IMG/VR virus record: IMGVR_UViG_3300045391_001808
Span: 1-54,317 of that record
Reading direction: 5' to 3' (one strand)
Length of the DNA: 54,317 bases
DNA from: a virus
The translations under genes and the position numbers were made by a program. Below are positions 21,261 to 49,903 of the stretch, piece by piece (the stretch's first letter is position 1; each line of letters begins with the position of its first letter). Below the pieces are notes generated by a model that was not told the origin of the DNA, did no database searches, and saw nothing but the letters and a program-made list of their open reading frames with translations.

Positions 21261-21863
21261 ATGAGAGAAGTACTGATGGTAGCAGAGTTCCACGAGAAGC
21301 TCGGCATCTCTCCCAGACAGCGGATGAGGTACAAGCCGTCGCAGATGCTGCTACAGTTCTCGCACGCGATCCACACAATGGCGCACGAGCTGGAACGCCG
21401 CGTGAATGACCCGGACGCGCGCTACCTTCGCGCCCACCTCGACCTAGAGGAGACGGCAGAGTTCGTCCACGCACTCGCGTGCGGGGACGAAGTCGCGGCA
21501 CTGGACGCGATGGCTGACAAGCTGTACATACTGTGCGGCCACGCCGACGTGTTCGACTTGCCGCTGGGCGCTGCGTTCGACGAGGTCCACCGGAGCAACA
21601 TGACGAAGAAGAAGCAGCCCGCAGACCCGAGTGCTGCTCGCGTGCGGCAGAAGGGGCCCAACTACTCGCCACCCGACCTGCGACGAGTACTACAGGAGCA
21701 TCGAGACGGCAGCCGCTGCAGCTGCGACTGGGACAAGATCCGACAGCTGGTACAGCTCATGCAGCACAGCCCGGAGATGAAGGAAGACATGCTGCACTAC
21801 GTAGACGCAGCACTCAAGCACGGAAAGACTCGTATGGAGACTCTAGGATGTACGACGCAGTAG
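21261..21863 (+). CDS. MazG-like all-alpha nucleoside triphosphate pyrophosphohydrolase
   Basis: LDLEETAEFVHAL...ALDAMADKLYILCGHA...AFDEVHRSNMTK matches the MazG-like NTP-PPase pattern. Confidence 0.7.
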   Translation: MREVLMVAEFHEKLGISPRQRMRYKPSQMLLQFSHAIHTMAHELERRVNDPDARYLRAHLDLEETAEFVHALACGDEVAALDAMADKLYILCGHADVFDLPLGAAFDEVHRSNMTKKKQPADPSAARVRQKGPNYSPPDLRRVLQEHRDGSRCSCDWDKIRQLVQLMQHSPEMKEDMLHYVDAALKHGKTRMETLGCTTQ

Positions 21864-23074
21864 GAATTCACGTATTCGCGGGCGGGTTCACAATGGGCGT
21901 TAAGAAGGTCATGAACTGTGAGACCCAGCTCGAGAAGCACGGCTTCGGTATCGAGACGGCCGAGGAAGTTGCCAAGGTGCAGGTGATCAACGGCGAGTGG
22001 CCAGACGTACCAGCGCAGATGGCGTTCGGCAACCCTCGCTGCACCGGGTTCAGCACGATCACGTCGGGCTACGACGAGACGGCACACGGGCCGTGGTCGA
22101 AGCAGACGTGTGACATACACGAGCTGTGCTCGTACGCGGCGGGCAAGTACGACATCGTGATATGGGAGTCAGTGCAGCAGGCTTACACGACCGGCAAGCC
22201 GCTGCTCGACTACCTGATCTCGGAGTACTTCGCGCCGCGAAACTACCGCGTGGCTCACGTGTTCATCAACGCCGCGTCGTTCAGCAACGCGCAGCAGAGG
22301 AAGCGATACTTCTTCGTAGCGTACCGCGACGACAGGAACTTCAACATCACGCCGCCAGTGATCGACCCGTACTATGCCACACTATATGACGCCATCTGGG
22401 AGGACAGGAACAGGGAAACTCGTGAGGTGAGGTTCTCTGCCAGCGACGAGTACGACCGAGACTGCTACATCAAGCTGACCGACAACGAGAAGGCGTGCGT
22501 GCCGTACCTGCCCACGGGCTGGGGGCTCAACACGCTTGCTCGGTTCAGGTACCAGTTCCTACCCGACAAGATGAAGTACGTCTGGGACACGAGAGTGAGC
22601 GACATGCCGTTCAGCCTGCACTGCATATCGAGGACGAACTGGCTACGGCCATGCCCGACCCTGCACTCCTCGGCCACGCGCTACATCCACCCGACGCACG
22701 ACCGACCGCTGACCGTCGGAGAGCTGGCAGCAGTCATGGGATGGGACGACATACCGCGTGGCAGGATGCCGGTGCCGCAGCTGGCCAAGGGTGTGGTGCC
22801 TGCTGTCGGCGAGTGGCTGGCACAGCAGGCAGCGGACTACCTGGACGGCAAGTGGGCCGGTGACGACTGGGAATCGTCGTACGACCCACACGACTGCGAG
22901 TGGAAGGGCAGGAGCGTGAACGGCGCCCGCGAGAAGGTCTTCGACCTGACCCGCTACGTGGGCTCACAATTCGACAGGTCGCGATACGAGGTGACGGATG
23001 ATGAACTATTCGACCATAGATACGGCCTGGGCAGAGACCATTCGAAGCCTGCTCGTCGAAGCCTCCCGACCTAG
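21848..23074 (+). CDS. DNA (cytosine-5) methyltransferase-fold protein
   Basis: Motif I IHVFAGGFTMG, motif IV FGNPRCTGFS, motif VI WESV, motif VIII QQRKRYFFVAY, motif IX RPLTVGELAAVMGW and a variant motif X KGVVPAV are present. Start ATG 21848 (the ORF opens at 21533 with Arg-rich junk). Confidence 0.75.
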   Translation: MYDAVGIHVFAGGFTMGVKKVMNCETQLEKHGFGIETAEEVAKVQVINGEWPDVPAQMAFGNPRCTGFSTITSGYDETAHGPWSKQTCDIHELCSYAAGKYDIVIWESVQQAYTTGKPLLDYLISEYFAPRNYRVAHVFINAASFSNAQQRKRYFFVAYRDDRNFNITPPVIDPYYATLYDAIWEDRNRETREVRFSASDEYDRDCYIKLTDNEKACVPYLPTGWGLNTLARFRYQFLPDKMKYVWDTRVSDMPFSLHCISRTNWLRPCPTLHSSATRYIHPTHDRPLTVGELAAVMGWDDIPRGRMPVPQLAKGVVPAVGEWLAQQAADYLDGKWAGDDWESSYDPHDCEWKGRSVNGAREKVFDLTRYVGSQFDRSRYEVTDDELFDHRYGLGRDHSKPARRSLPT

Positions 23075-23984
23075 CGAGCGTGGTGACATGCGCGAGGTCG
23101 TCGGCTACTCGTTCTCGCTGATGGGAGACAGGACGTTCCTGTGCAACGAGCGGCGGGCGTTGTCGCCGACGTATGCCGCTGCAGAGACGCTGTGGTACCT
23201 CGGGCGCGGTGGGAGCGTGGAGATGATGAAGGCCTACGCGGCCCAGTACGTGAACTACACGGAGAGCGACGGCACGGTGTATGGCGCTTACGGTGCGAGA
23301 ATAGCTAGGAACTTGTACGAGACTACAGACGGTGTGGTCGAAGACGACCTCCTTGACCTCGCCGTAGAGCAGCTGCGGCACCGGCCCGACACGAGACAGT
23401 GTGTCGTCTCGCTGTGGCGGCCCGACGACATCAGCGTGGTCGCGAAGGACCGGCCCTGCACGCTGTCGTGGCAGTTCTTAAGACGGGACGGGTACCTGCA
23501 CATGGTGGTGAACATGCGGAGCAACGACGCGTGGCTCGGGTTGCCGTACGACGTGTTCGCGTTCACGTGCGTGCAGCGCCTGGTCGCTGACACCCTGAGG
23601 CTCGACGTCGGTAAGTACGTTCACAACGTCGGCAGCATGCACCTCTACGAGAAACACGTGCCACAGGCAAGACAGGCCCTGGACTACGAGCACGCTGGAA
23701 GACAGCACCTGTGGCAGATACCCAGCCGCATGGAAGAAGTGCCGCAAGCTATTGAGGCAGAGAGCAAAGTTAGGCATACAGGATGCGAGAGAGCTCTCTT
23801 CACTGGCGACATGCTGCGAGATCTATACTACTGCTGCGCCGACAAGTGGGTGAGCGGCCTGCGACAGTACTTACAATCACCCGCGCTAAGACACATGATG
23901 GAGGTTCACGATGCTCGTAATCGAGGGCGGAGACCTAGTGGGGAAGACGACGCTGGCAAAGAAGCTGGTAGCACGACTGGCTGA
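22998..23984 (+). CDS. ThyA-family pyrimidine C5 transferase, predicted dCMP-specific (hydroxymethylase or methylase)
   Basis: The catalytic Cys is in DRPCTLSWQF (codon 23457-23459). MRSNDAWLGLPYD carries Asp (23550-23552) where thymidylate synthase has Asn (LGLPFN). GSMHLYEKH is also present. Confidence 0.7.
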   Translation: MMNYSTIDTAWAETIRSLLVEASRPSERGDMREVVGYSFSLMGDRTFLCNERRALSPTYAAAETLWYLGRGGSVEMMKAYAAQYVNYTESDGTVYGAYGARIARNLYETTDGVVEDDLLDLAVEQLRHRPDTRQCVVSLWRPDDISVVAKDRPCTLSWQFLRRDGYLHMVVNMRSNDAWLGLPYDVFAFTCVQRLVADTLRLDVGKYVHNVGSMHLYEKHVPQARQALDYEHAGRQHLWQIPSRMEEVPQAIEAESKVRHTGCERALFTGDMLRDLYYCCADKWVSGLRQYLQSPALRHMMEVHDARNRGRRPSGEDDAGKEAGSTTG

Positions 23985-24507
23985 CGAGGGCTACGTCTAC
24001 AAGCACTTCTCGCGACTGCCTGACAAGTTCGACAGGTTCTGGGGCTACGTCGAGAACGCTGTGACGCGCTCGGTGCAGGACCGCTTCCACATGTCAGAAG
24101 TCATGTACAGCGAGATGCGTGGTGACGACACCATGCTGTGCCCGCAGCGGTACCGCATGGTAGACGGCCACCTGCGTACACGAGGCGCGCTCACAGTGAT
24201 CGTCACGTGTGACGAGCGACTGCTGGCGAGTCGGGCACCACACGAAGACGAGATGTACGGCCGAGACCAGATACTGGCAGTGAATAGCATGTTCGAGCGG
24301 GTCGTCCAGGAGCGAGGCCAGTTCTCGCATCACGTTCACGGGCTCTACCACATGGACTTCGACGTGGCAGTAGAGTGCGACGACAGCAAGCCGTACCCCG
24401 ACGACTACGACGTGGATCACATCATCACATCTTACAGCAGGAGACTAGCGACATGGCAGAGAGTAATGTCACAGGAACAGTACTCGCGACGATTACCAAC
24501 TGTATAA
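23911..24507 (+). CDS. P-loop (d)NMP kinase, thymidylate-kinase-like
   Basis: MLVIEGGDLVGKTTLAKKL resembles the Tmk EGxDGxGKTT P-loop. GGAGG lies upstream of ATG 23911. Confidence 0.65.
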   Translation: MLVIEGGDLVGKTTLAKKLVARLADEGYVYKHFSRLPDKFDRFWGYVENAVTRSVQDRFHMSEVMYSEMRGDDTMLCPQRYRMVDGHLRTRGALTVIVTCDERLLASRAPHEDEMYGRDQILAVNSMFERVVQERGQFSHHVHGLYHMDFDVAVECDDSKPYPDDYDVDHIITSYSRRLATWQRVMSQEQYSRRLPTV

Positions 24508-24806: not shown

Positions 24807-27612
24807 GCTCGACTCGCTCCACCCGTGGCACAACTGCAGGCCGTGCGGGTTCGCGGTCACGTGGGACGACGTCCCGGGCGCGTGGTACGTCCCCGTGGAC
24901 CACGACTTCGGGCCAGTCGTGCAGCGCGAGGCGGCCTACACGTGGCTCCGTGACATAATGTCTCGGAGTCACGTGTGGGTCAACCACAACGTGAAGTACG
25001 ACGCGCACGTGTACGAGCTGAACGTCGGGAGGATCCCTCCAGGCGTTCAGCTCCGGTGCACGGTCGTGCGGGCGAAGCTGGTCGACTCGGACCGACAGTT
25101 CCGTGGTGGGTACGGCCTGGACGTGTTGAGCTCGCAGTGGCTGCACGAGGACATCAGTGCCGTGGAGCAGGCGATGGCACCTTACCTCTACCGCTGCAAG
25201 GACTACGGCGTGGTGCCGTCGGACGTCATGGGTTCGTACGGCTGCCAGGACGTGATCACAAACCGTAGGCTGGATCGTTACATCGACAACGCTATGGCAT
25301 CCCAATGTTGTGAGATAGCGCTGGTAGAGCAGTCGCTGACTCGCGTGCTGCTTGACGTGGAGCAGCGTGGCATGATGGTCGACCCCACCGAGCTCAAGAT
25401 CGCCGAGCTCAGGACGATGACCCAGATGCTGCAGCTGGAGGCAGAGCTTGAGGTTCTCGTCGGCAGGTCGTTCAGGCCGCACGTCAACGAGGACTGCTAC
25501 GACGTGCTGTGCACGCAGTACGGGCTGCCCGTCATGGGGTGGACCGACAAGACAGAAGACGGCGAGGAGGGCGGCAACCCGTCGTTCGACAAGCAGGCAC
25601 TCGCGGGCTACATGGTGCACCCACTGGCCCCGAAGGACGTCGTGAGTCGGATCGTAAAGTATCGCAAGCTGTCTACGTTCAAGTCGCTGTTCGTAGACGT
25701 GCTGTCTACCGAGCACGTGGACGGCGTGATCCACACGCAGTACAACCAGCTCGTGCGCACCGGCCGGCTCAGCTGCAAGTCACCCAACATGCAGCAGCAG
25801 GACAAGTCGAGCAAGATGCTGTTCCACCCGCGACCTGGGTACAGCTTCATGTCGTGCGACTACTGCTTACCGGCTGGCACGCTGATACCGACGCCGTACG
25901 GTGACAAGCCGATAGAGATAGTTGCCGCCAACTTGATGCCAGTACTGTCTGTGACAGACAGTGGAGAGCTTAAATTCTGCGCGACCTCGAGAGGTGGAAG
26001 AGTTGGATTCGGCCAGATATTCAAGATCACTTTCACCGACGGGACTACATTCGAGTGTACGAGCGACCATCCGATGATGAGACTGGACGGCACGAGTGTT
26101 AAGTGCAAGGACTTGGTCTCAGGAGACAGGATGGCACACGTTGTTGACACGACGATAGGGAAATATACATACTGGAAACTTAAGAGCAGCATCTACAGCA
26201 AGCACAAGCTTGTAGCTGAGTGGGCGACAGGATCTAAGATAGATAGCGACCTCTACCACGTGCACCACATCGACGAGGACAAGAATAACTGGTGCGTGAG
26301 TAACCTAGAGGTAAGAGGTTACTCTGAGCACATATCAGGCCATAGTAGGCAACGATATCTGTCGCAAGATCATGTAAAGCGAGTAGAAGCACTGCGCGAA
26401 GCTCTTAAGAATCGAAGATCATACGCATATGATGAGAACCCAAACTGGCAGGGTGGTAAGATCGTGGTTGCATGTGACACGTGCGACCGACCATTCGAGA
26501 AGTGGCCTTCGCAGGATACTAAATACTGCTCGAAAGAGTGCCGTAGCGCTGGCCGATCAGCGAGTCATCAGAAGCGAAGAGTTGAAGTTACCTGTGAGAC
26601 GTGCAGTAGGACCTTCGAGACTCTGCCCGGAAGACCTCGAGTCTTCTGCTCGAGAGCTTGCTCTAACCGATCACCTGTAAAGACTGCAAAAGACGATAAG
26701 AACTATGAGGTGCTAAGCGTCGAGTACGCTCGCGACGACTGGTACTACAGCATAACTGTTCCTGAGACTGGTACTTACGTCACTACGAACGGGCTCATAA
26801 ATTCACAGAGTCAGATCGAGTTCCGGTTCATAGTCCACTATATCGACGAGCCACACGCCGTGGAGGCTTACAACCGCGACCCAGATACAGACTTTCACAC
26901 GTGGGTCGCCGAGCTCTGCAAGATCAAGAGGAAGCCGGCCAAGACTGTCAACTTCATGGTGGCCTTCGGCGGCGGCAAGAAGAAGACGATCAAGACGCTG
27001 TCGAAGAACGACGACGTGATCGGCGACATCACGCAGCAAGTCGAGAAGCTAATCGCAGAGGGCAGGGTGGACCGCGCCGACGCGAAGCTGGTGTTCGACC
27101 AGCTCTGCGAACGGAAGGCCGTTGACATGTATGAGACCTACCACGCCACGCTGCCCAACCTCAAGCGCACGTCCCGACGCGCCGCGTCAGTCTGCGAGCG
27201 GCGGGGCTACGTCTACACAATCATGGGCCGGCACCGGCACATCCCGAGGGACAAGGCGCACATAGCGTTCAACACGATCAACCAGGGCAGTGCTGCTGAC
27301 CTGATGAAGGAGCGCACCGTGGCGCTGGCCGAAGCGATCCGTGGCAGGGACATCCACATCGTCGCGAGCGTGCACGACGAGGTGCTGCTCGAGATGCCAA
27401 CTGCTGTCGCACACGATCCTCGGACGGCTCGTGACCTCGCGAACCTGATGGAGCACCCGCCGTTCGAGCTGCGAGTGCCCATCAGGTGCAGCATAGGAGT
27501 GAGCGACCACACGTGGGCGCAGGCCGGCAGCGACGACGTCAGCGGCCCTGTGTCCTACGATCCCAGCGAGTGCGGGCTGTTCGATCACGTTCCTAACACG
27601 TCGACACACTGA
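24691..27612 (+). CDS. family A DNA polymerase (3'-5' exo + pol) interrupted by an intein
   Basis: Exo I is LYLDFET. Motif A is split as SCDY / SQIEFR. Motif B is KPAKTVNFMVAFGG and motif C is VASVHDEVLLE. Confidence 0.9.
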   Translation: MLTFDNGGRLITREDELPPVPERIERLYLDFETRSGDPKLDSLHPWHNCRPCGFAVTWDDVPGAWYVPVDHDFGPVVQREAAYTWLRDIMSRSHVWVNHNVKYDAHVYELNVGRIPPGVQLRCTVVRAKLVDSDRQFRGGYGLDVLSSQWLHEDISAVEQAMAPYLYRCKDYGVVPSDVMGSYGCQDVITNRRLDRYIDNAMASQCCEIALVEQSLTRVLLDVEQRGMMVDPTELKIAELRTMTQMLQLEAELEVLVGRSFRPHVNEDCYDVLCTQYGLPVMGWTDKTEDGEEGGNPSFDKQALAGYMVHPLAPKDVVSRIVKYRKLSTFKSLFVDVLSTEHVDGVIHTQYNQLVRTGRLSCKSPNMQQQDKSSKMLFHPRPGYSFMSCDYCLPAGTLIPTPYGDKPIEIVAANLMPVLSVTDSGELKFCATSRGGRVGFGQIFKITFTDGTTFECTSDHPMMRLDGTSVKCKDLVSGDRMAHVVDTTIGKYTYWKLKSSIYSKHKLVAEWATGSKIDSDLYHVHHIDEDKNNWCVSNLEVRGYSEHISGHSRQRYLSQDHVKRVEALREALKNRRSYAYDENPNWQGGKIVVACDTCDRPFEKWPSQDTKYCSKECRSAGRSASHQKRRVEVTCETCSRTFETLPGRPRVFCSRACSNRSPVKTAKDDKNYEVLSVEYARDDWYYSITVPETGTYVTTNGLINSQSQIEFRFIVHYIDEPHAVEAYNRDPDTDFHTWVAELCKIKRKPAKTVNFMVAFGGGKKKTIKTLSKNDDVIGDITQQVEKLIAEGRVDRADAKLVFDQLCERKAVDMYETYHATLPNLKRTSRRAASVCERRGYVYTIMGRHRHIPRDKAHIAFNTINQGSAADLMKERTVALAEAIRGRDIHIVASVHDEVLLEMPTAVAHDPRTARDLANLMEHPPFELRVPIRCSIGVSDHTWAQAGSDDVSGPVSYDPSECGLFDHVPNTSTH
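25864..26802 (+). mobile_element. intein with HNH homing-endonuclease domain, inserted in PolA motif A
   Basis: Block A is CLPAGTLIPTPYG (Cys1 at 25864), block B is ECTSDHPMM, HNH is HVHHIDEDKNNWCVSNLEVRGYSEHISGH, and there are two CxxC...CSxxC repeats. Block F/G is WYYSITVPETGTYVTTNGLIN followed by Ser (Asn codon 26800-26802). The segment is visibly lower in GC. The 3' boundary is ambiguous by 6 nt (SQ|SQ). Confidence 0.8.
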
Positions 27613-30068: not shown

Positions 30069-30390
30069 GATAGTAGAGATACGTGATCGCGCGACGTTCA
30101 TACCGGCGATGGCCGTACGACTCAGCGGAGAGTGCTCGGATCAGGAAAGATGGCTGCTGTCGCGTGCTGGTTTCGGTTTGAAGCGCGAGGACCAGGAGCG
30201 ATACGTGATCCTCATACACCTGGGCACTATGGAGTGTAACTACGACCCTCACCAGTGGGGTGGTGGGCGCACGATGTGTGAGGCACACAAGTGGATCGTC
30301 GACCACTGGGACGAGGTCGTGGTGGGACAGGTCGTCGACGTGCAGTTCATACTCGGTGAGACTCCAGTAGCAAAGGTGTCAGAGCGATGA
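30058..30390 (+). CDS. hypothetical protein
   Basis: 110-aa ORF preceded by the leader cassette. Confidence 0.6.
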   Translation: MECKIVEIRDRATFIPAMAVRLSGECSDQERWLLSRAGFGLKREDQERYVILIHLGTMECNYDPHQWGGGRTMCEAHKWIVDHWDEVVVGQVVDVQFILGETPVAKVSER

Positions 30391-31229
30391 AACACAAGTG
30401 TAAGACGTGGAGGCCCGGAATCGAGTCGCGGTACGTCCAGCTCAAGCGGGACGGCATCTGGCTCGAGCTGACGCGGGCCAACCTGCGATACGCAGCGACC
30501 AGCAAGCCGTCGTATGTGACAGCTGCCGTCGAGAAGTGCCTGGGCCGCGACGTGTGGGCGGGCATGCCCGACGGCACCACGGTATACGGCGAGCTGTACT
30601 CGCCCGGAAAGCCAGCCAGCGACGTAAAGAGCGCGCTGGCGGACGGTCGCCCGCTGGCGTTCGACGCCTTCGCGATCGGCAGCAACCCAGACTACACGCT
30701 GGAGCACGTGCGGGACGTAGTACGCGAGTGGGGGTTCCACTTCGCGCCGTTCTTCGCACTTAACAATAAGCCACTACCCTCCCTCTTCAAGGCAGACGAG
30801 CCGCAGACGTTCTACAAGTTCTGGAAGGGGTTTACTGACTGCGAGGGAGTCGTCTACAAAGACAGCAACCTCGAGGGGTGGCACAAGTGGAAGCCGGTAC
30901 GAACGATCGACCTCGTCGTGGCAGGGTTCGAGGACGGCAACGGAAAGCACCTCGGACTCGTAGGGTCGATGCTCGGAGCGGTGTACATGCCCGACGGGAA
31001 CATGCACATCATCGCGAACGTCGGCACAGGGATGAGTGACGACCTGAGAATGGACGTGAGCCTCGATCGGGAGAAGTATCTAGGTTCGGTGATCGAGGTG
31101 GAGTACCAGTACGTCGGGTCGCAGGGTCGCCTGCGGCACCCGAGACTGAAGTGTTTTAGGGACGACAAGCTAGGACGCGAGTGCTTGCTCGACCAGGACC
31201 CAGACTTGGAGGCAGCATGGCGAAACTAG
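30387..31229 (+). CDS. ATP-dependent DNA ligase
   Basis: Motif I is VQLKRDGIW (KxDG). VYGELY, EGVVYKD and WHKWKP correspond to motifs III-V. Confidence 0.8.
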   Translation: MKHKCKTWRPGIESRYVQLKRDGIWLELTRANLRYAATSKPSYVTAAVEKCLGRDVWAGMPDGTTVYGELYSPGKPASDVKSALADGRPLAFDAFAIGSNPDYTLEHVRDVVREWGFHFAPFFALNNKPLPSLFKADEPQTFYKFWKGFTDCEGVVYKDSNLEGWHKWKPVRTIDLVVAGFEDGNGKHLGLVGSMLGAVYMPDGNMHIIANVGTGMSDDLRMDVSLDREKYLGSVIEVEYQYVGSQGRLRHPRLKCFRDDKLGRECLLDQDPDLEAAWRN

Positions 31230-31456
31230 TTTCGACTGCTCTCGTAGTCATAATCGTAATGGGCATACTATTTGCTCTGATTAAGAATGCTGTAGACGCA
31301 GCTAATAAGACTATCTCACAAGAGGACGCGATCAACTTAAAGCAGGTTATGGACAAGAATGGTATCCGAGTGTGGAAGTTCCGTGACGGGAATCACAGCT
31401 ATCTTGTGACTGATGGGTTCCTACTCGAGATCAGAGAGGAGGCTGAAGCACGATGA
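31217..31456 (+). CDS. small membrane-anchored protein
   Basis: 79 aa. The N-terminal TM segment is LVSTALVVIIVMGILFALI. GGAGG lies upstream of ATG 31217. Confidence 0.5.
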   Translation: MAKLVSTALVVIIVMGILFALIKNAVDAANKTISQEDAINLKQVMDKNGIRVWKFRDGNHSYLVTDGFLLEIREEAEAR

Positions 31457-32031
31457 CACGGACCATGCTGATAGGCGAACGGTTCAACGGCCCGCGACGA
31501 GAGCGGTGGGACGAGCTCTGCAAGAGCGACCCGGGTGGCTGGCTCGAGCTAGCAGTACGGCTGGGCGCGTTTCACGACGCGCGGTCGCGCTCGCGGCTGG
31601 CGAGCATAGGAATCACGTTCAACGTTCCGACGTGGGCGATAGGCAGCGTGCAGGGTGAAGAATCTTCGTCCTGCACGCTGTCGAGTCCCACGGTGGACCG
31701 CACGATGAACCTGCTGCCGCCCGCGCCGCAGAAGGTACGATGGGCGCCGACGCTCGCGGGACAGGTGGCGATAGCGTGGTACCCGCACCTGCTCGACTAC
31801 GAGGTGACTTACCTCTGCGGCCGGAAGGTAGCGTCGGCGTTCGGTGTGCCGGTCAGCGGACCGATCCCGTCGCGGTGGGGCCTGAGCTCTGCCGACTGGG
31901 GCGACTGCTTCCTGCTACAGGACGACGAGGAGTGTGACCACACCCTAGTCGTCCTCCCACATCCATCAGGACTCAACAGATTCTGGAACGACGAGATAGC
32001 CGTGGAGCTGGCAAGGGAGATGCTGTCATGA
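31453..32031 (+). CDS. uracil-DNA glycosylase superfamily-like protein
   Basis: N-terminal LIGERFNGP resembles UDG motif A (GExPG). C-terminal VVLPHPSGLNRFWN resembles motif B (HPS). Confidence 0.5.
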   Translation: MTRTMLIGERFNGPRRERWDELCKSDPGGWLELAVRLGAFHDARSRSRLASIGITFNVPTWAIGSVQGEESSSCTLSSPTVDRTMNLLPPAPQKVRWAPTLAGQVAIAWYPHLLDYEVTYLCGRKVASAFGVPVSGPIPSRWGLSSADWGDCFLLQDDEECDHTLVVLPHPSGLNRFWNDEIAVELAREMLS

Positions 32032-32672
32032 AGAAAGTATGCAAGACTGCAGGATACGAGTACGAGTGGCTGAGGACTGCCCCGCCCGGCACTGCTGTGC
32101 GAGTCCTGGATGCTGGGGACGGATGGTACACGTACGACTGGTACGACGGGCAGCCGGCGCTCCACGCGTCGCACGTGTGGCTCTTCATGAAGAAGCACGT
32201 GTGGGACTACGGCGCGGGGCCGGACTTTTGGATCGACAAGAACAGGTACGTCGACCACGTGTACGAAGTGTCACGAGGTCTGGACGTGCGCGATAGTTTG
32301 GTGACGCTAGTGCTCAACCAGATATGGACGCTGAGCGTCACACCGGTGCGGTACTGCCACGGCGACCTCACGCTGCTCAACGTCGTCGACGGTATGGACG
32401 GCCTGAAGCTGATCGACCCGTGCGACTGTCACGGCCTGCCGTGCAGGGAGCTCGACGAGTCGAAGCTCATGATGTCACTCGACGGCTGGGACTTCGTCAA
32501 GACTGGCAGGTGGCCCGACGTGCGATCACGGATCCCGGGCGTGCGTCGCGTACATCACGCGCTGCTGGCCACTCACTACCTACGAGCGCTCGCTCACAGT
32601 GAAAAGCATTGTGAGCGGGCGCTGGAGTTCTGTCGTGACCGGTTCTACGAAATCGCTGAGGCCATAACATGA
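32028..32672 (+). CDS. protein-kinase-like fold phosphotransferase (APH/choline/sugar kinase-like)
   Basis: The catalytic loop is YCHGDLTLLNVV, followed by LKLIDP (a DxD/DFG-like metal site). Confidence 0.6.
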   Translation: MKKVCKTAGYEYEWLRTAPPGTAVRVLDAGDGWYTYDWYDGQPALHASHVWLFMKKHVWDYGAGPDFWIDKNRYVDHVYEVSRGLDVRDSLVTLVLNQIWTLSVTPVRYCHGDLTLLNVVDGMDGLKLIDPCDCHGLPCRELDESKLMMSLDGWDFVKTGRWPDVRSRIPGVRRVHHALLATHYLRALAHSEKHCERALEFCRDRFYEIAEAIT

Positions 32673-33016
32673 AGAAAAAGACGTACCTTATCGACATCGA
32701 TGGCTGCCTGCTCCGCCACTTCGAGCTGGGCCCTGCCAAGCAGTGGTTCGAGACCGGACAGCCGCTGCCCGGGGCACGCGACTGTCTCGAGCGGCTCGAG
32801 ATGGACGGCGCGCACATCGTTCTGGTGACTGCCCGGCCTGAGGTGTTCAGGGAACTTCTCGTGAAGTCCCTGCACGCCCACGGTCTGGTCTACCACCAGC
32901 TCGTGATGGGAGTGACCAGCGGCGAGCGTGTGCTCGTCAACGACCAGAAGCTGAGCGGCAAGGCCGCTACGGCGATAGAGATGACCCGCAACTCTAACAT
33001 AGGGGACTGGATATGA
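32669..33016 (+). CDS. HAD-superfamily phosphatase
   Basis: Motif I is YLIDIDGCLL, motif II is VLVTARP, and the later acidic motif is VLVNDQK. Confidence 0.65.
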   Translation: MKKKTYLIDIDGCLLRHFELGPAKQWFETGQPLPGARDCLERLEMDGAHIVLVTARPEVFRELLVKSLHAHGLVYHQLVMGVTSGERVLVNDQKLSGKAATAIEMTRNSNIGDWI

Positions 33017-33657
33017 GGACCGGAGTGCTACTGTGCGACGGGCCGTCGACGCGGCTGCCCAACAAGTGCATGCTCCCGCAGAGGAACCGCTTCATGGTGT
33101 GTGAGTCCGGGCTGGGCTTCCTACTGAAGAGCGGCCACTGCGACGAGATCGTCGTGCCGGTGTGGAAGAATGGGCTGCTGAAGGACGTGATCCCGACTCG
33201 TGGCTGGCCTAGCAACGTCAGGCTACTGCCGGAGGCCACGCAGGACGGCCCGGTGGCGACAATTAAGCGTGCTGCCTACTGGGCTCGAGAGGGCCAGCTG
33301 CTGGTAGCGTACGGCGACAACTACTACTCGGGCGAGGAGCCCGAAGTCCCGAAGACTGCCAGTAACCGCGCCTGCGTGCGCCAGGGCCTCAGGCATACCG
33401 AGCAGCTGGACGCGTGTGTGAGTAGGCCGGCTGGGCCGCACTGGGCGCACCGCGACAGCCTAGAGAGGGAGCGCCTGATCGGCCACCTCGCTGGCTGGAT
33501 GCTCCTCGACGTCGCGTGTGTCCTGTCGTACAGCGGCAACGACGTCCTCGTCATGCTCAACACGTTCAAGGCGCTTCCAGAGGTGTACGGCAGTTCGTAC
33601 GACTGGTCCGATCTCGGCACGCCCGAGAGCTACAGGAGGCACTTATGCGGTCAGTAG
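33013..33657 (+). CDS. sugar-phosphate nucleotidyltransferase-like protein
   Basis: GVLLCDGPSTRLPNKCMLP parallels the GxLAGGxGTRLxPxT...PK signature. VAYGDNYY parallels the GDN motif. Confidence 0.55.
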   Translation: MRTGVLLCDGPSTRLPNKCMLPQRNRFMVCESGLGFLLKSGHCDEIVVPVWKNGLLKDVIPTRGWPSNVRLLPEATQDGPVATIKRAAYWAREGQLLVAYGDNYYSGEEPEVPKTASNRACVRQGLRHTEQLDACVSRPAGPHWAHRDSLERERLIGHLAGWMLLDVACVLSYSGNDVLVMLNTFKALPEVYGSSYDWSDLGTPESYRRHLCGQ

Positions 33658-34826
33658 TAGTGTGTAAGAGCGGCAGCGTGCTGGGAAGCACGTCCGCGTC
33701 GGGAGAGGCGGGCGAGACGGAGGGTGTGCTCAGGCACTTCGTCGGCCGTGGCGACGTGCGTGTCGTCTACTTCGGTCGCGTCAACGGGCAGCTGCCCGAC
33801 GGCGTGACCCATGTAGACCCTGACGTGGGTGGCGTGGACGAGTGGTGCACTGCAGCCAGGCAGCTCGAGGGCTTCGAGAACAACTGGGAGCGACTGCGGG
33901 ACTGCGAGGCGCTGTGCGTCATCAACGTGTGCGGCTACTCGCCGACGATGTCACACGTTGACAACCCACACGGTGCCCAGGTGCAGGCTGCCGCCATACG
34001 GTACAACGCGCCGATGCTGGACTTCTTGGAGAGGGCACGCGTCCCGAGAATCTGCGTAGTCACGGACCCCCGCCTGTACCCGAAGGACCAGGAGATGTCG
34101 CTCGGGTGGGAGTGGGCCCGGCCGCGGGCGCTACTCGACCAGTGGAGTCTCGACGCGAGGCAGGTCGTGGGCGGTGTGAAGTACGCACGACGCTCGGTGT
34201 ACGCTGCCTGCCAGTCGTGGGCGTGGCTGCCACAGCGTGAGAATTCCGGCACGGTGCCAGCCTGCGTGCTCGGTCACGCGCACGTAGAGGACGGGATCAA
34301 GAAGGGCAGCTGGGGTCCGTGGTGGGACATACTGCCGCGGCTCGATCAGTGGCCCGACTGGCTGTACGTCGCCGGGAAGGGCTGGGACAGTCCTGACTCC
34401 CGAGTATGTCAGAGACACTACAAGGGCTGCGTCAGCCAGCTCGAGATGACGAGGATGCTCACGTCTGCACGCTGCTGTCCTGTGGTGGCGCACACGCCAG
34501 GGTTCTACACGGGCAAGCCCCACTTCCTCATGAGCCACGGGTGCGTCCCGATCCTGTACGGGCGGGGCGAGAAGCACACGTGGGACCTGGAGGAGAGGTA
34601 CCTGTCGATCAGATCGCGTGCGCGAGTCACGAACTGGTACGAACTGCGAAGGGAGATAGAGGGTATGCAGGGCGACGAAGTATGGAAGTTCATGCAGGAC
34701 TGGTGGCGGAAGAAGCTGCAGCCTAAGTGGGAGAAGCTGGACGAGTGCGTGGACGAACTGCTCTCCGGTGCGGGTACCGAGAGCCCAGAGTGGTGGACCA
34801 AGTATGGAGGGTACAGGAAGTGCTGA
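33645..34826 (+). CDS. putative GT-B fold glycosyltransferase (weak resemblance to DNA beta-glucosyltransferase architecture)
   Basis: 393 aa from ATG 33645 (AGGAGG upstream). ICVVTDPRLYP and the C-terminal VVAHTPGFYTGKPHFLMSHGCVPILYG resemble a GT-B donor-binding segment. The assignment is tentative. Confidence 0.4.
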   Translation: MRSVVVCKSGSVLGSTSASGEAGETEGVLRHFVGRGDVRVVYFGRVNGQLPDGVTHVDPDVGGVDEWCTAARQLEGFENNWERLRDCEALCVINVCGYSPTMSHVDNPHGAQVQAAAIRYNAPMLDFLERARVPRICVVTDPRLYPKDQEMSLGWEWARPRALLDQWSLDARQVVGGVKYARRSVYAACQSWAWLPQRENSGTVPACVLGHAHVEDGIKKGSWGPWWDILPRLDQWPDWLYVAGKGWDSPDSRVCQRHYKGCVSQLEMTRMLTSARCCPVVAHTPGFYTGKPHFLMSHGCVPILYGRGEKHTWDLEERYLSIRSRARVTNWYELRREIEGMQGDEVWKFMQDWWRKKLQPKWEKLDECVDELLSGAGTESPEWWTKYGGYRKC

Positions 34827-34958
34827 TGCGACAGGACGTCGAGCTGTTTGAAGAGTACGTGAGGGCGCCTCACAGGGTCAGAACTAACACGGAGAAAGCA
34901 GCACTTACACAGGCGGTCGTACGACTCGCCGGTGTGGGTGCTGCAGTCGCGAGGTCGT

Positions 34959-35294
34959 ATGAACGAGTCGGCACGGACCAGGAAGCTGTGCGAGGGGCTG
35001 AGGAAGCTCAACGCGATGGTGTACGCAGCAGTGGCGGGCGAGAAGGGGACGAGTGGGTGGCCGGACCGCTATGTCCACCATCGTACGTGGCAGGGGTGGC
35101 TGGAGTTCAAGGACGGCACGAGGAAGTGCACGCCGCTGCAGCAGGAGATCATCCGAGGGATGAACGCCCGCTGTTGCGGAAGCGCGTACGTCGTAAGGCA
35201 CGGAGCTAACACGATCGAGAATCACGACGGTGAGGTGCTGGCGACGTTCGACGGCACCGCGACGTCACTACTGGGAGCTCTGGAGGACTTATGA
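34959..35294 (+). CDS. VRR-NUC domain nuclease
   Basis: GWPDRYVHHRTWQGWLEFKDGTRKCTPLQQEIIRGMNARCCGSAYVV follows the VRR-NUC pattern (G.PD...E.K....L...Q). Start ATG 34959 (the ORF opens at GTG 34932). Confidence 0.65.
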   Translation: MNESARTRKLCEGLRKLNAMVYAAVAGEKGTSGWPDRYVHHRTWQGWLEFKDGTRKCTPLQQEIIRGMNARCCGSAYVVRHGANTIENHDGEVLATFDGTATSLLGALEDL

Positions 35295-35539
35295 ATAAGA
35301 TAGTACTGACCGGAGTCGTGATGACCTTCATCACGCTGGCGGCGTTCATCATACTGGCGTTCACGATCGGATACGACGCCGGACGGCACTCGCGACACCG
35401 CGAGGTCGTAGACTACATCACCCGACAGAGCGTGCTGACACGACGACTGATACGGCTCGGCGACGAGCAGACGATGCGTGAGGTGGAGAAAGAATCCCTA
35501 ACACTGGAGAAAGACAATGGGTCAGATGGTAATTCCTAG
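35291..35539 (+). CDS. small membrane protein
   Basis: 82 aa. The N-terminal TM segment is IVLTGVVMTFITLAAFIILAFTIG. Confidence 0.55.
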   Translation: MNKIVLTGVVMTFITLAAFIILAFTIGYDAGRHSRHREVVDYITRQSVLTRRLIRLGDEQTMREVEKESLTLEKDNGSDGNS

Positions 35540-36383
35540 GACGTACCTGCTGGGCGTGACGCAGCCCGACCGCGACGAGCTGCTGCGGTACCTGCGAGAG
35601 ACTGGACAGGAAGAGTTCATGAGGCAGTTCGAGGAGGCAGAGCAGGAGGTGGGCGGGGCGCTGTGTCTCGTCAGCTTCTACGCCAAGCTGTGCTACAAGT
35701 CGCTGGTGCTCGGTAAGAACAGCAACGTCACCGCGACGCGAGACATCCTTGAGAATCTCACAGGATGTCTCGCGCAGGGGCACGGGTCCGTCTTCGAGCA
35801 CGTGACGCTGAACTTCGTGACGACGAACTGCTCGCGGGTGTTCACGCACGAGCTCGTACGACATCGCGCGGGCACGGCGTTCTCGCAGACGAGCGGGCGG
35901 TACGTAAGCATCGACTCGCTGGACTTGGTGCTGCCGCCAGAGCTGACACGCGACACGCCCTGCGAGTGGTGTCGTGGCGAGGGTACGGAAGAAGGGTGCG
36001 ACACTAGGTGTCGCGCGTGTGACGGTCTCTGCACACTCGACAAGGTGTACGAGAGGGCCAGGTCAGACATCGAGATCGTGCTGCAGAACCTGCGAATGGC
36101 GACGGTGCCCGAGCATGCAGACTTCGCGACCAAGAAGCGCCTCACGTCTGCCATACGACGGCTCGCGCCGAACGGGCAGGCCAACGAGATCGGGTGGTCT
36201 GCCAACGTGCGGGCGCTGCGACACATCATGGAGATGCGCACGTCGCCCGTCGCAGAGTGGGAGATGCGGCAAGTCTTCAACGACGTGTACGACATCGTCG
36301 CCGCACGCTGGCCACTGATGCTGCACGGCGCTGAGGTCACTCATGAGGGTGGCCTCATCGCTGTGGAGGGACTTGGAGTATGA
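35517..36383 (+). CDS. thyX: flavin-dependent thymidylate synthase
   Basis: The ThyX signature is HELVRHRAGTAFSQTSGRYV (RHR...SQxSxRY). GHGSVFEHV and ANVRALRHIMEMR are also present. Confidence 0.85.
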   Translation: MGQMVIPRTYLLGVTQPDRDELLRYLRETGQEEFMRQFEEAEQEVGGALCLVSFYAKLCYKSLVLGKNSNVTATRDILENLTGCLAQGHGSVFEHVTLNFVTTNCSRVFTHELVRHRAGTAFSQTSGRYVSIDSLDLVLPPELTRDTPCEWCRGEGTEEGCDTRCRACDGLCTLDKVYERARSDIEIVLQNLRMATVPEHADFATKKRLTSAIRRLAPNGQANEIGWSANVRALRHIMEMRTSPVAEWEMRQVFNDVYDIVAARWPLMLHGAEVTHEGGLIAVEGLGV

Positions 36384-37897: not shown

Positions 37898-38355
37898 CGC
37901 GAAAATATGATGCGACGAAGAGGCGCGAGGACGCGGCGATCCGAAAGGCGCGGCAGGCGATGGAGTTCCTCGAGCGGATGGAGCGCCGCGAGCGGGTGAG
38001 AGCTCGCAGGAGGCCACGGCCCGAGGTGCCCGAGGACTACAGGTGCCCGAGGTGCGGGAAGACCCGTCTGCGACGCAGGCAGTGGCGGCTGGCCGAGGAC
38101 GGTAGCACCGTGTGCGTGACCTGCAGCAGGCAGCCGAGACCGCTGCCGCCAGGATGTGTCTGCCCGAGGTGCCAGAGGAGACTGCCGCGGCGTGAGCGGT
38201 GGGACATGCGCAGCGAGCCGCTCGTGTGCAGGCGCTGCTCGGCCGAGAGGAAGGAAGCTATGGAGGTACTCAGTGATGTCAGGACTTCAGTGGCTGGAGG
38301 AGAATCCCAGAGCAGTCCGATGGCTGTTGAGGAAGTACCCGAGCCACATGCATGA
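37894..38355 (+). CDS. double zinc-ribbon protein, Arg-rich
   Basis: ATGA overlap at 37894. It has two more copies of the CPxC...RW...VCxxC module (YRCPRCGKTRLRRRQWRL...VCVTC and CVCPRCQRRLPRRERWDM...VCRRC). Confidence 0.6.
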   Translation: MTRKYDATKRREDAAIRKARQAMEFLERMERRERVRARRRPRPEVPEDYRCPRCGKTRLRRRQWRLAEDGSTVCVTCSRQPRPLPPGCVCPRCQRRLPRRERWDMRSEPLVCRRCSAERKEAMEVLSDVRTSVAGGESQSSPMAVEEVPEPHA

Positions 38356-38740
38356 CGACCTGTGGGGCGTGTGCGTGGATCGCGCCGAGGCGATCATGGC
38401 GACGTGGGACGGCACGAAGGGTGCGACGATGGGCTATCACATGGTCAAGAACCTGCGGTGGTACATGTGGAAGTGGGTGCGCCGCAGGCAGCGTGACGCA
38501 GAGCGCCATCCCGAGAACTCGGAGCGCGTGGGGTCTACATACGTAGCTCCTGACACGCTCGAGCACAGTGACGAGGTGAGGTCGGTCATGGACCGCCTCA
38601 CGCCGTACGAGCGGCACATCGTGGTGCTGCACGCGGTAGACGGCATGAGCTTCGAGCAGGTCGCCGAGCTCGTGCACAGCAGTAAGAACACCGTGAGGCT
38701 GCAGTACCTGGCAGCCGTGGAGAAAGCAAGATGCCGATAG
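38276..38740 (+). CDS. ECF-like sigma factor
   Basis: Region 4 HTH is LTPYERHIVVLHAVDGMSFEQVAELVHSSKNTVRLQYLAAVEKAR. A region 2-like segment is YHMVKNLRWYMWKWVRRRQR. ATG 38276 has GGAGG 9 nt upstream. Confidence 0.75.
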   Translation: MSGLQWLEENPRAVRWLLRKYPSHMHDDLWGVCVDRAEAIMATWDGTKGATMGYHMVKNLRWYMWKWVRRRQRDAERHPENSERVGSTYVAPDTLEHSDEVRSVMDRLTPYERHIVVLHAVDGMSFEQVAELVHSSKNTVRLQYLAAVEKARCR

Positions 38741-49776: not shown

Positions 49777-49903
49777 GAATCACGCCACGCTTGCTGCGGT
49801 CCTTGCAAGCCTAGTGTTCGGGGTACTACTCGCGATAGCCGGCGCCGCCGTGCACAACTTACACCACCAAGAAAAAGCGAGCACCAGCAATGCAGCGCAC
49901 TAG
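49763..49903 (+). CDS. very small single-TM protein
   Basis: 46 aa (MTLNRNHATLAAVLASLVFGVLLAIAGAAV...), below the ORF-track cutoff. It overlaps both neighbours. Confidence 0.3.
   Translation: MTLNRNHATLAAVLASLVFGVLLAIAGAAVHNLHHQEKASTSNAAH

Follow-up and report, generated by a model that had tools for sequence, protein, structure and literature searches.

A four-gene phage block predicted to activate a sugar for glycosylation of 5-hydroxymethylcytosine in DNA

Four overlapping genes in the stretch of DNA analysed here, which comes from an uncultivated phage (54,317 nt, hereafter the window), are proposed to activate a sugar and to glycosylate 5-hydroxymethylcytosine (5hmC) in the phage's own DNA. 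The probability of this reading was put at roughly 0.6, and we infer both the acceptor and the sugar. Glycosylation of 5hmC was considered the best reading because of the homology to AfhE and AfhF, the co-occurrence with a thymidylate synthase (ThyA) homologue of the T4 gp42 type and the precedent of contig 53 of Pyle et al. If it is true, the sugar on 5hmC would shield phage DNA against restriction enzymes and other nucleases. DNA glycosylation is already known as an anti-restriction strategy; the present case probably adds a new lineage and an uncharacterised transferase family.

Organization and recurrence of the four-gene block

All four ORFs were found on the + strand between positions 32028 and 34826, where the initial annotation had placed them, and the motifs that it quoted (HGDLTLLNV, DIDGCL, GVLLCDGPSTRL and YGDN) are all present in the translations. 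The block encodes a small-molecule kinase of the APH/choline-kinase/fructosamine-kinase fold (214 aa, 32028..32672), a small capless HAD phosphatase (115 aa, 32669..33016), an RmlA-like sugar-1-phosphate nucleotidyltransferase (214 aa, 33013..33657) and a GT-B-fold glycosyltransferase (393 aa read from the ATG, 33645..34826). The overlaps between neighbouring genes are 4, 4 and 13 nt long. A purine-rich Shine–Dalgarno-like stretch lies ahead of each start; AGGAGG is located 6 nt ahead of the transferase ATG. No promoter-like or terminator-like site was found on the + strand inside the block. Upstream lie an ATP-dependent DNA ligase gene (30387-31229) and a weak UDG-like gene (31453-32031), which runs 4 nt into the kinase start. 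Downstream lie an endonuclease-like gene (34932-35294) and the ThyX gene (35517-36383). The four genes form a single overlapping transcription unit in a replication and nucleotide-metabolism block that extends from ligase to ThyX, and the earlier description of coupled genes in a DNA-metabolism block holds for ORFs, coordinates, overlaps and flanking genes.

The ligase–kinase–HAD–nucleotidyltransferase–transferase block was seen in about 20 independent related metagenomic phage contigs. The four ORFs were taken as real genes and not chance ORFs because each has full-length homologues and the block recurs. In the divergent phage L110, the order is HAD–nucleotidyltransferase–kinase–transferase and the ligase gene is located downstream, apart from the four genes, which stay together. 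The kinase and the phosphatase are fused in two relatives (P0071 and L113). Judged from this recurrence, reordering and fusion, the four genes behave as one unit; two related modules in which the HAD gene is missing (L004 and L007) count against the main reading.

Predicted supply of 5hmC

A 5hmC supply was predicted from three + strand genes at 21261-24507. The first (21261..21863; Pfam PRA-PH, 2.6e-9) encodes a MazG-like nucleotide pyrophosphohydrolase. By analogy with T4 gp56 and the RB69 dCTPase (PMC13326640), it is a candidate dCTPase and would provide the hydroxymethylase with dCMP. The second (22998..23984; Pfam Thymidylat_synt, 5e-28) encodes the ThyA homologue, which carries a dCMP-hydroxymethylase signature and matches ThyA (7e-26) and the CMP hydroxymethylase MilA (9e-26) in the PDB. 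In E. coli numbering, its residues are L143D, C146, H147T, D169 and N177D. The signature is the same as that of T4 gp42, unlike that of RB69 gp48, which has D169N. Under the rule given for such residues in PMC13326640 (sections 24 and 28), which distinguishes a 5hmC from a 5-hydroxycytosine (5hoC) product, the retention of D169 together with L143D and N177D predicts 5-hydroxymethyl-dCMP and not 5-hydroxy-dCMP. On these residues, the homologue is predicted to provide the 5hmC acceptor and belongs to the same proposed pathway as the four genes. The third gene (23911..24507) encodes a P-loop Tmk-like nucleotide kinase, a candidate 5-hydroxymethyl-dCMP kinase. Its Thymidylate_kin match (5e-6) is below the curated cut-off; hhalign matched it with RB69 gp45, DLP1 gp76 and Thanatos gp67, nucleotide kinases of arabinosylation clusters, with a probability of 89.

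A C5 DNA methyltransferase-like gene adjoins the ThyA homologue, which makes complete replacement of C by 5hmC hard to square with the data. No TET gene was found in this phage. A gp42-type ThyA was present in 10/10 transferase-family contigs with enough sequence (the window, L006, L007, L014 and all six IMG/VR transferase-family contigs of at least 27 kb). Both this co-occurrence and the residue signature support the link that had been drawn between the four genes and a modified-dCMP pathway.

The transferase and its acceptor

Members of the transferase family share the motifs NNDPRTYPKDQEMS, AHAH and FYTGKP. Searches of the transferase against Pfam, PHROG, NCBIfam and PDB sequences gave no match. 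The AF2 model (pLDDT 88.5, pTM 0.89) was compared with the PDB using Foldseek; all the top matches are GT-B enzymes, among them WaaG, BshA, PimA and the glycosyltransferase of phage HY126 (9iqz), each with a probability of 1.00, which confirms the GT-B-like fold first suggested for the 393-aa protein. Matches in BFVD include an uncharacterised Myoviridae protein (1.9e-17) and a 'DNA beta-glucosyltransferase' of Siphoviridae sp. ctYh54 (1.2e-12, TM 0.67). No sequence similarity was detected by hhalign to the DNA arabinosyltransferases of RB69, DLP1 and Thanatos (probability <1) or to T4 beta-GT (E 0.087, probability 0.7). The family, with 274 representatives at 50% identity, is uncharacterised and so far phage-associated; a divergent member adjoins an NDP-sugar epimerase/dehydratase gene. 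We propose that the enzyme would transfer a sugar to 5hmC in DNA.

The three upstream enzymes could also make an NDP-sugar with which the GT-B enzyme decorates a target other than DNA, such as a virion protein, a small molecule or a glycan of the host envelope (LPS or capsule remodelling, superinfection exclusion). This was judged possible but unlikely. The best PDB neighbours (WaaG, BshA, PimA and MshA-type enzymes) have LPS, lipids and small molecules as their targets, but known DNA glycosyltransferases give matches of this kind too (PMC13326640 Table 1; Pyle et al. Table S1), and proteins labelled DNA beta-glucosyltransferase are among the best viral structural neighbours. The absence of detectable sequence similarity to known DNA glycosyltransferases would also fit a non-DNA acceptor, as would the presence of AfhE/AfhF-like trios within obvious glycan clusters: the kinase, HAD and nucleotidyltransferase genes are found with GDP-fucose genes and fucosyltransferases in S-SRM01, and in L015 they accompany GT2 enzymes, without a ThyA in the vicinity. 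The window itself has a second glycan enzyme, a GT25–sulfotransferase fusion adjoining the tail genes. Against a non-DNA acceptor, the transferase family was always seen in phage replication modules and is accompanied by the gp42-type dCMP hydroxymethylase in the ten contigs given above. Glycosylation of 5hmC was kept as the preferred reading. The initial proposal of a phage-activated sugar on hydroxymethylated bases is supported by the folds and the gp42-type ThyA; we infer its DNA acceptor, beside which the non-DNA alternative stands.

The sugar-activating enzymes

The kinase contains the catalytic-loop motif HGDLTLLN and a metal-binding IDP motif. It gave no match in Pfam, PHROG and NCBIfam searches and has 58 full-length homologues. 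The AF2 model, built with a 54-sequence alignment (pLDDT 97.3), matched fructosamine-3-kinase (3f7w, 2.7e-4), choline kinases, LicA (4r7b), MTR kinase and APH(3') in the PDB using Foldseek, in agreement with the kinase fold previously recognized from motifs. Profile comparison (hhalign) gave a probability of 94.7 with the RB69 gp52 kinase domain and of 96.5-97.2 with AfhE-type kinase domains (controls at most 0.2). In its proposed role, it would phosphorylate a host sugar phosphate at the anomeric carbon. None of the results suggests an antibiotic kinase or CMP-Kdo mimicry, the two examples that the initial annotation had named as speaking against a glycosylation pathway.

The nucleotidyltransferase has the N-terminal loop G-x-x-L-x-x-G-x-x-x-R-L-P-N-K and a GDN motif. 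The public gene call (195 aa) loses the conserved N-terminal motif; the 214-aa reading was preferred because the family alignment supports the longer N-terminus. The window protein on its own has no Pfam match, and its syntenic orthologues match PF12804 (NTP_transf_3). The family profile matched an RmlA-like protein (3hl3, 1.3e-7) in the PDB, which together with the Pfam match of the orthologues upholds the assignment as a sugar-1-phosphate nucleotidyltransferase; further matches were TarI (4jis, 2.3e-6), GlmU and, over the full length, HddC (6jq8). With AfhE-type nucleotidyltransferase domains, hhalign probabilities were 70-95 (controls at most 0.2). The NTP loop of the window protein departs from the family consensus (LCDGPSTR vs LAAGESTR), which counts against the main reading. 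We propose that the enzyme converts sugar-1-phosphate and NTP into NDP-sugar.

LicA and LicC activate choline to CDP-choline, and TarI makes CDP-ribitol. That a non-sugar alcohol or alditol phosphate is activated here, the GT-B-fold protein being a TagF-type phosphotransferase that makes a phosphodiester-linked decoration, was judged very improbable. The kinase does have LicA and choline/ethanolamine kinases among its best structural matches, and the nucleotidyltransferase family has TarI among its best sequence matches, but no role would be left for the phosphatase, yet the HAD protein is conserved, in some relatives as a fusion with the kinase. Moreover, sugar transferases head the matches of the GT-B-fold protein, with TagF-type enzymes absent from the 50 best matches listed, and the kinase profile matches the AfhE-type sugar-phosphate kinase domain with a probability of 97.

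The HAD phosphatase has the motifs DIDG, TAR and ND-K. It matches Pfam Hydrolase_6 (5e-6), phrog_1238 (2e-11), which has the same family label as RB69 gp51, and phrog_415 'polynucleotide kinase' (2.6e-7). The best PDB profile match of the family is the Pnkp1 phosphatase domain (1e-4), followed by T4 polynucleotide kinase/phosphatase (Pnkp). Pfam, PHROG and PDB matches thus agree with the phosphatase call made from motifs. With the AfhF-type HADs of RB69, DLP1 and Thanatos, the hhalign probability was 95.7, and 98.4 with S-SRM01 added (controls at most 0.2). The protein would remove the distal phosphate from a sugar bisphosphate. T4 Pnkp works with ligase in end healing and sealing; that ligase, kinase and HAD form such a nucleic-acid repair set, with the other two enzymes as unrelated passengers, is hardly credible. 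In its favour, the kinase gene directly follows the ligase gene in nearly all related loci, and the HAD has these Pnkp and phrog_415 matches. Against it, the kinase has a small-molecule APH fold and not a P-loop polynucleotide-kinase fold, kinase and HAD both match sugar-pathway enzymes of RB69-like phages, and in L110 the ligase is separated from the four genes.

Proposed pathway and comparison with known systems

In the proposed pathway, the MazG-like enzyme, the gp42-type ThyA homologue and the Tmk-like kinase would convert dCTP/dCMP into 5-hydroxymethyl-dCDP, as predicted from their sequences. Host enzymes would complete the triphosphate, the phage PolA would incorporate 5hmC into DNA and ThyX would supply dTMP. 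The APH-fold kinase would phosphorylate C1 of a host-supplied sugar phosphate, the HAD phosphatase would take off the distal phosphate and the nucleotidyltransferase would couple the resulting sugar-1-phosphate to an NTP; this chemistry is assumed by analogy with AfhE/AfhF and contig 53, whereas fold and homology come from the comparisons above. After replication, the GT-B enzyme would move the sugar onto the hydroxymethyl group of its presumed acceptor, 5hmC. No sugar-phosphate isomerase gene is encoded, so the kinase substrate must pre-exist in the cell; our guess is heptose-7-P, arabinose-5-P or another common sugar phosphate.

Contig 53 is the closest tested precedent for the four-gene set. 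Its HAD–APH bifunctional enzyme, cytidylyltransferase and GT-B enzyme GT53 were all required for mono- and di-heptosyl-5hmC in E. coli (Pyle, Lund, O'Toole and Saleh, bioRxiv 10.1101/2023.12.21.572611). Compared by enzyme set and structure matches, both systems have an APH-fold kinase, a HAD, a nucleotidyltransferase and a GT-B enzyme, without a sugar isomerase. The best PDB matches of GT53 (BshA 3mbo, 2jjm, T4 beta-GT) overlap those of the window transferase (3mbo, 2jjm). The HAD–APH fusion is paralleled by the fused relatives of the window kinase, whereas the window genes are separate. In contig 53, 5hmC is made after replication by a C5 methyltransferase and a TET-like dioxygenase; in the window, the gp42-type ThyA homologue is predicted to act before replication.

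The bacterial nucleotide-heptose pathway uses the isomerase GmhA, the kinase HddA or HldE, the HAD phosphatase GmhB and the nucleotidyltransferase HddC or HldC. As in the pathway proposed here, anomeric phosphorylation is followed by distal dephosphorylation and then nucleotidyl transfer. GmhB (E 0.09) and HddC (E 1.5e-4) are among the PDB matches of the window families, but these matches are weak and not the best. The bacterial kinases are of the GHMP or PfkB type and not APH-fold, and GmhA has no counterpart in the window.

T4 glucosylates 5hmC by means of gp56 dCTPase, gp42 dCMP hydroxymethylase, gp1 kinase and alpha- and beta-glucosyltransferases. The window shares the L143D, D169 and N177D signature, the pre-replicative logic with a pyrophosphatase (MazG-like in the window) and a nucleotide kinase, and a GT-B-fold transferase. 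Unlike the window, T4 has no genes for sugar activation and draws on the UDP-glucose of its host. By sequence, the window transferase falls outside the T4 beta-GT family.

In RB69-like phages, DNA is arabinosylated with UDP-arabinose that the AfhE/AfhF-type cassette makes, according to PMC13326640 (sections 25 and 27), which cites He et al. and Mahler et al. A fused nucleotidyltransferase–kinase (AfhE), a HAD (AfhF), an arabinose-5-P isomerase and GT-B arabinosyltransferases lead to arabinosyl-5-hydroxycytosine (PMC13326640). Arabinose, given as an example in the initial annotation, is now known to sit on 5hoC and not on 5hmC. The kinase, HAD and nucleotidyltransferase of the window are remote homologues of those of RB69 (gp51-53), DLP1 and Thanatos. 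Both systems have a Tmk-like nucleotide kinase adjoining the ThyA homologue and a GT-B transferase, with the genes located within a DNA-metabolism block. The window differs in its separate kinase and nucleotidyltransferase, in lacking the SIS isomerase, in a transferase without sequence similarity to the arabinosyltransferases, and in a ThyA homologue that keeps D169 and would yield 5hmC rather than 5hoC. In contrast to RB69, the window phage is not T4-like; it is a phage of about 54 kb with a lambda-E-type capsid protein and PolA.

Gene layout and conservation of the module

The window comprises an entire JGI metagenomic contig (54,317 bp). Its structural genes encode a lambda-E-type capsid protein, a Mu-like portal, Mu F and a terminase. 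A long replication and nucleotide-metabolism block lies on the + strand and contains four ORFs, encoding a kinase (32028-32672, +), a HAD phosphatase (32669-33016, +), a nucleotidyltransferase (NT; 33013-33657, +) and a transferase (33645-34826, +). Consecutive genes overlap by 4, 4 and 13 nt, every start codon is preceded by a Shine-Dalgarno-like sequence, and no promoter-like or terminator-like site was found on the + strand between the four genes. The module has an ATP-dependent DNA ligase and a gene with a weak UDG likeness on its 5' side, and an endonuclease-like gene and ThyX on its 3' side. ORFs and flanks agree with the initial annotation. The 192-aa gene between ligase and kinase (31453-32031, +) matched the UDG superfamily weakly (E 0.056) and shares 4 nt with the start of the kinase gene. 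The related loci for which genes were called (L001-L007, L014 and L113) have no called gene of comparable length there. At the DNA level the four-gene region had no match among 50,697 phage records, and tblastn with the transferase or the kinase returned no matches, which indicates that no cultivated relative carries the module.

HMMs of the four families were searched against all loci collected. The order ligase-kinase-HAD-NT-transferase was found in about 20 independent contigs. Kinase and NT are separate genes in all related loci and also in the window, where the HAD gene lies between them. In one related contig (P0071/L113, 3663-4916), kinase and HAD are fused into a 417-aa protein, preceded by the ligase and followed by the NT. 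A divergent phage, L110, has the genes arranged as HAD-NT-kinase-GT, the HAD gene is missing from two loci (L004 and L007), and a more divergent transferase member adjoins an NDP-sugar epimerase/dehydratase. Linkage that survives gene rearrangement and fusion typically marks enzymes that share one pathway. Seven loci (L003, L006, L014, L016, L019, L020 and L021) have longer modules with an additional 286-aa protein (no Pfam match) and a small PMI-like cupin, which weakly resembles the C-terminal domain of mannose-6-phosphate isomerase. This pair lies in the NT-transferase interval in most of the seven (for example L003 8822-10004 and L014 11276-12480) and 3' of the transferase in L006 and L021. 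The long modules probably make a sugar different from that of the short module of the window.

Related trios were also seen in other settings. In locus L015 (9063-12546), a divergent kinase/HAD/NT trio adjoins GT2-family transferases, and neither a GT-B enzyme nor a ThyA homologue was found within 10 kb; the sugar-activation cassette thus works with other transferases. In Synechococcus phage S-SRM01 (L011, 190320-203174), a SIS isomerase, an AfhE-like fused NT-kinase and a HAD phosphatase belong to a large cluster that also holds GDP-fucose synthesis genes, fucosyltransferases, GT2 enzymes and a FkbM methyltransferase.

The transferase and its family

Profile libraries recognized only the HAD phosphatase among the four proteins (Hydrolase_6, 5e-6; phrog_1238, 2e-11). 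The kinase, the NT and the transferase had no match in Pfam, PHROG or NCBIfam and no sequence match in the PDB, and single-sequence PDB searches with these three gave no useful result. A word-index search recovered a transferase family of 20 proteins, and an exhaustive search 274 representative clusters at 50% identity. No Pfam domain was detected among family members; the divergent ones gave a single sub-threshold match to Glyco_trans_1_2 (E 0.018). The family profile matched the PDB just once, in a spurious 18-residue alignment to TRAF6.

The AlphaFold model of the transferase, built with 19 homologues, had a pLDDT of 88.5 and a pTM of 0.89 and showed strand-helix alternation in its domains. 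It gave 61 PDB structural matches at E <=1e-3, the best 50 of which are GT-B-fold enzymes, nearly all glycosyltransferases and two NeuC epimerases. The matches include WaaG, BshA, PimA, MshA and the phage HY126 glycosyltransferase (9iqz). The predicted viral structures yielded an uncharacterised Myoviridae protein as the best match (1.9e-17); another of the best was labelled DNA beta-glucosyltransferase (1.2e-12, TM 0.67). As modelled, the protein would have the two Rossmann-like domains and the nucleotide-sugar site in the cleft that characterize GT-B enzymes. Retaining enzymes of CAZy family GT4 have an E-x7-E motif in the C-terminal domain. This motif was not found in the transferase when the family alignment was inspected by eye; the presumed equivalent segment, PGFYTGKPYVxxxxGCxPLLYG, has no conserved glutamates, and D314 is the sole invariant acidic residue of the C-terminal domain in that alignment. 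The pI of the family was considered as a hint of DNA binding and proved uninformative, known DNA arabinosyltransferases being equally acidic.

The product of 33645-34826 had been proposed for comparison with the T4 glucosyltransferases. By sequence it does not fall into the T4 alpha- or beta-glucosyltransferase families (no Pfam match at E <=0.1; hhalign against T4 beta-GT, prob 0.7, E 0.087), and the likeness is at the fold level only. Nor did hhalign detect sequence similarity between the transferase and the arabinosyltransferases.

The probable sugar-activation enzymes

A cassette of similar composition has been described in T4-like phages, where RB69 encodes it as gp51-53. The DNA of RB69 and DLP3 carries arabinosylated 5-hydroxycytosine (PMC13326640, 2026). 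The RB69-type cluster encodes a ThyA homologue producing 5-hydroxy-dCMP, with the diagnostic residue D169N, a Tmk-like kinase and an arabinose-5-P isomerase (PMC13326640). AfhE of phage HY126, a fused NT-kinase, phosphorylates C1 of arabinose-5-P and, at a later step, produces UDP-arabinose; the HAD phosphatase AfhF removes the 5-phosphate, and GT-B arabinosyltransferases are also present in the cluster (PMC13326640). Profiles of the window families were compared with the corresponding regions of RB69, DLP1, Thanatos-2 and S-SRM01; cross-family hhalign controls gave <=0.2%.

Six syntenic orthologues of the kinase gave a profile that recovered 58 homologues. The kinase model (pLDDT 97.3) matched structures of fructosamine-3-kinases, choline/ethanolamine kinases, LicA, methylthioribose kinase and APH(3'). 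From these matches the protein is, as modelled, a small-molecule kinase of the eukaryotic-like kinase fold, and the expectation raised by its HGDLTLLN and IDP motifs was borne out. The kinase family (54 sequences) matched RB69 gp52 (hhalign prob 94.7, E 6e-8), the motifs HGDxxxxN, IDP and DEAK coinciding in the alignment, and the kinase domains of RB69, DLP1 and Thanatos (with S-SRM01) at prob 96.5-97.2.

The HAD family profile matched two phosphatase domains, those of Pnkp1 and T4 Pnk, and gave a weak match to GmhB. Against the AfhF-type proteins of RB69, DLP1 and Thanatos, hhalign gave prob 95.7, rising to 98.4 with S-SRM01 added; against RB69 gp51 alone it gave just prob 39. Among isolate phages, the S-SRM01 protein is the nearest relative of the window HAD (tblastn 5e-10).

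A word-index search with the NT returned the query itself as the sole match, and orthologues were collected from syntenic loci. The resulting profile (seven sequences) matched RmlA-like enzymes (1.3e-7), TarI, GlmU and the heptose enzyme HddC, and several orthologues matched PF12804. Against the N-terminal domain of AfhE-type proteins, hhalign gave prob 94.9 over 178 columns with a four-sequence profile, and 70.1 when the profile was limited to Straboviridae; this match is generic, RmlA, GlmU, TarI and HddC being matched as well. The NTP loop of the window NT reads LCDGPSTR, versus LAAGESTR in the family consensus. For the NT (33013-33657, +), the public gene call is 195 aa long and starts 19 codons late, so that the conserved N-terminal NTP-binding loop is lost.

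Differences from the Afh-type cassette were seen as well. Kinase and NT, fused in AfhE, are two genes in the window, and the arabinose-5-P isomerase of the RB69-type cluster has no SIS counterpart there. No SIS domain was present in the window ORFs covered by the Pfam scan, an isomerase HMM derived from RB69, DLP1 and S-SRM01 matched neither the window nor any related locus, and a GmhA-like isomerase, sought in order to name the sugar, was found in none of them.

The predicted source of 5-hydroxymethylcytosine

Alignment of the ThyA homologue (22998-23984, +) to its E. coli and T4 counterparts, ThyA and gp42, and to the RB69-type enzymes showed that it carries D143, C146, T147, D169 and D177 (E. 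coli numbering). The catalytic Cys is in place, and the residues are those of T4 gp42 at all five positions. For this family N177D indicates a dCMP substrate, L143D/E a non-methyl product and D169N hydroxylation (PMC13326640, sections 24 and 28). With D169 kept and identity to gp42 at the five positions, the predicted product is 5-hydroxymethyl-dCMP; the RB69-type 5-hydroxycytosine route was rejected since D169 is retained, whereas the RB69, DLP1 and Thanatos homologues have N at 169. The gp42 signature is common to the window enzyme and the pre-replicative 5hmC pathway of T4. The gene is flanked by a MazG-like pyrophosphatase (PRA-PH, 2.6e-9) and a Tmk-like P-loop kinase related to RB69 gp45 (hhalign prob 89), candidates for the dCTPase and the hm-dCMP kinase of such a pathway.

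A gp42-type ThyA with D169 was found in the window, in L006, L007 and L014 and in all six transferase-carrying IMG/VR contigs of at least 27 kb; shorter contigs of the transferase family stop before the region where ThyA is expected. Locus L027, with the transferase and a canonical ThyA, was considered as a counter-example and is uninformative, its contig ending just upstream of the module. Directly upstream of the ThyA homologue lies a C5 cytosine DNA-methyltransferase-like gene (21860-23074, +; motifs FAGG, PRC, ESV and QQRKR). This pairing is conserved in L006, L007, L014 and 27 of 80 IMG/VR loci (L029-L108). No TET/JBP (TET/5mYOX) domain was present in the window ORFs covered by the Pfam scan.

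Proposed pathway and alternatives

The closest tested precedent for the window system is contig 53 of Pyle et al., who rebuilt metaviromic clusters in E. coli (bioRxiv 10.1101/2023.12.21.572611). In this cluster the synthesis of mono- and di-heptosyl-5hmC needs three proteins together, a bifunctional HAD-APH protein, a cytidylyltransferase and the GT-B enzyme GT53, and 5hmC arises post-replicatively by a C5 methyltransferase and a 5mYOX/TET dioxygenase (bioRxiv 10.1101/2023.12.21.572611). The passage quoted beside Pyle et al. names APH, HAD and NTP-transferase genes among the neighbours. The same enzyme set (HAD, APH-like kinase, NT and GT-B) is encoded in 32028-34826; the likeness is one of enzyme set. 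The best PDB matches of GT53 (3mbo, 1bgt and 2jjm) overlap those of the window transferase. HAD and APH are fused in contig 53 and separate in the window, but a kinase-HAD fusion occurs in relatives of the window. Contig 53 combines a C5 methyltransferase with TET, whereas the window has the C5 methyltransferase-like gene and, instead of TET, the gp42-type ThyA homologue.

By analogy, the kinase would phosphorylate a host sugar phosphate at C1, the HAD phosphatase would take off the distal phosphate, the NT would make the NDP-sugar and the GT-B enzyme would move the sugar onto 5hmC in DNA. As no isomerase occurs in the window or any related locus, the entry substrate must be a metabolite that the host already makes; candidates with precedent are heptose-7-P, which contig 53 implies, and arabinose-5-P, on which AfhE acts. 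The observed folds, gene linkage, homology to Afh-type enzymes and ThyA signature, with its co-occurrence, support the DNA glycosylation suggested in the initial annotation as far as computation reaches, and the probability that the four-gene module serves this function is put at about 0.6. The conserved C5 methyltransferase-like gene beside the ThyA homologue counts against it, being odd if cytosine is fully replaced.

A non-DNA acceptor for the sugar is less likely. The solved-structure neighbours of the transferase act on LPS, lipids or small molecules, as do those of proven DNA glycosyltransferases. AfhE/AfhF-like trios also occur in glycan-type clusters, beside fucose genes in S-SRM01 and, in L015, beside GT2 enzymes in a neighbourhood that lacks ThyA, so that the cassette alone does not fix the acceptor. 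The window also encodes another glycan enzyme, a fusion of GT25 and sulfotransferase domains that is unrelated to the module. A phosphodiester-type decoration and a nucleic-acid end-repair set each have a small probability.

The system probably belongs to the phage cytosine-glycosylation clusters that carry their own sugar-activation enzymes. Set against the precedents, it stands apart by its separate genes, the lack of an isomerase, the predicted gp42-type source of 5hmC and a transferase family without annotation. A stronger version is tentative and rather doubtful: the 393-aa protein would found a new family of DNA glycosyltransferases, decorating 5hmC with a sugar unreported on phage DNA and drawn directly from a host sugar phosphate by an isomerase-free, stand-alone trio, while the long modules would make yet another sugar. 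Sugar-decorated cytosines are a major phage escape from restriction enzymes, CRISPR nucleases and DNA glycosylases. If DNA glycosylation by the module is true, the use of a self-made activated sugar on modified cytosine would no longer be confined to T4-like phages and TET-based clusters and would include an uncultivated lineage of ~54-kb phages with a gp42-type hydroxymethylase. No concept is overturned, the enzyme logic having tested precedents. The transferase family is sizeable and is missed by present Pfam and PHROG annotation; it might be screened for new DNA-glycosylating activities and 5hmC-labelling tools.

Other genes of the window and related contigs

The GT25-sulfotransferase fusion (12853-14160, +; 435 aa) has an LPS-type Glyco_transf_25 domain (1.2e-9) and a sulfotransferase domain (3.5e-8). 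It sits between tail-region genes and a SNF2 helicase and is unrelated to the four-gene module. The family A DNA polymerase gene (24691-27612, +) is split by an intein with a HNH endonuclease, and an intein is also present in the polymerase of the related locus L003. The window further encodes a PAS-domain protein (49890-50396, +) and a sigma-70 region-4 protein (38156-38740, +); sigma-factor genes are present in related contigs as well. In two related phages a CsrA-family gene directly adjoins the module (L001, 11185-11388; L014, 9772-9960).
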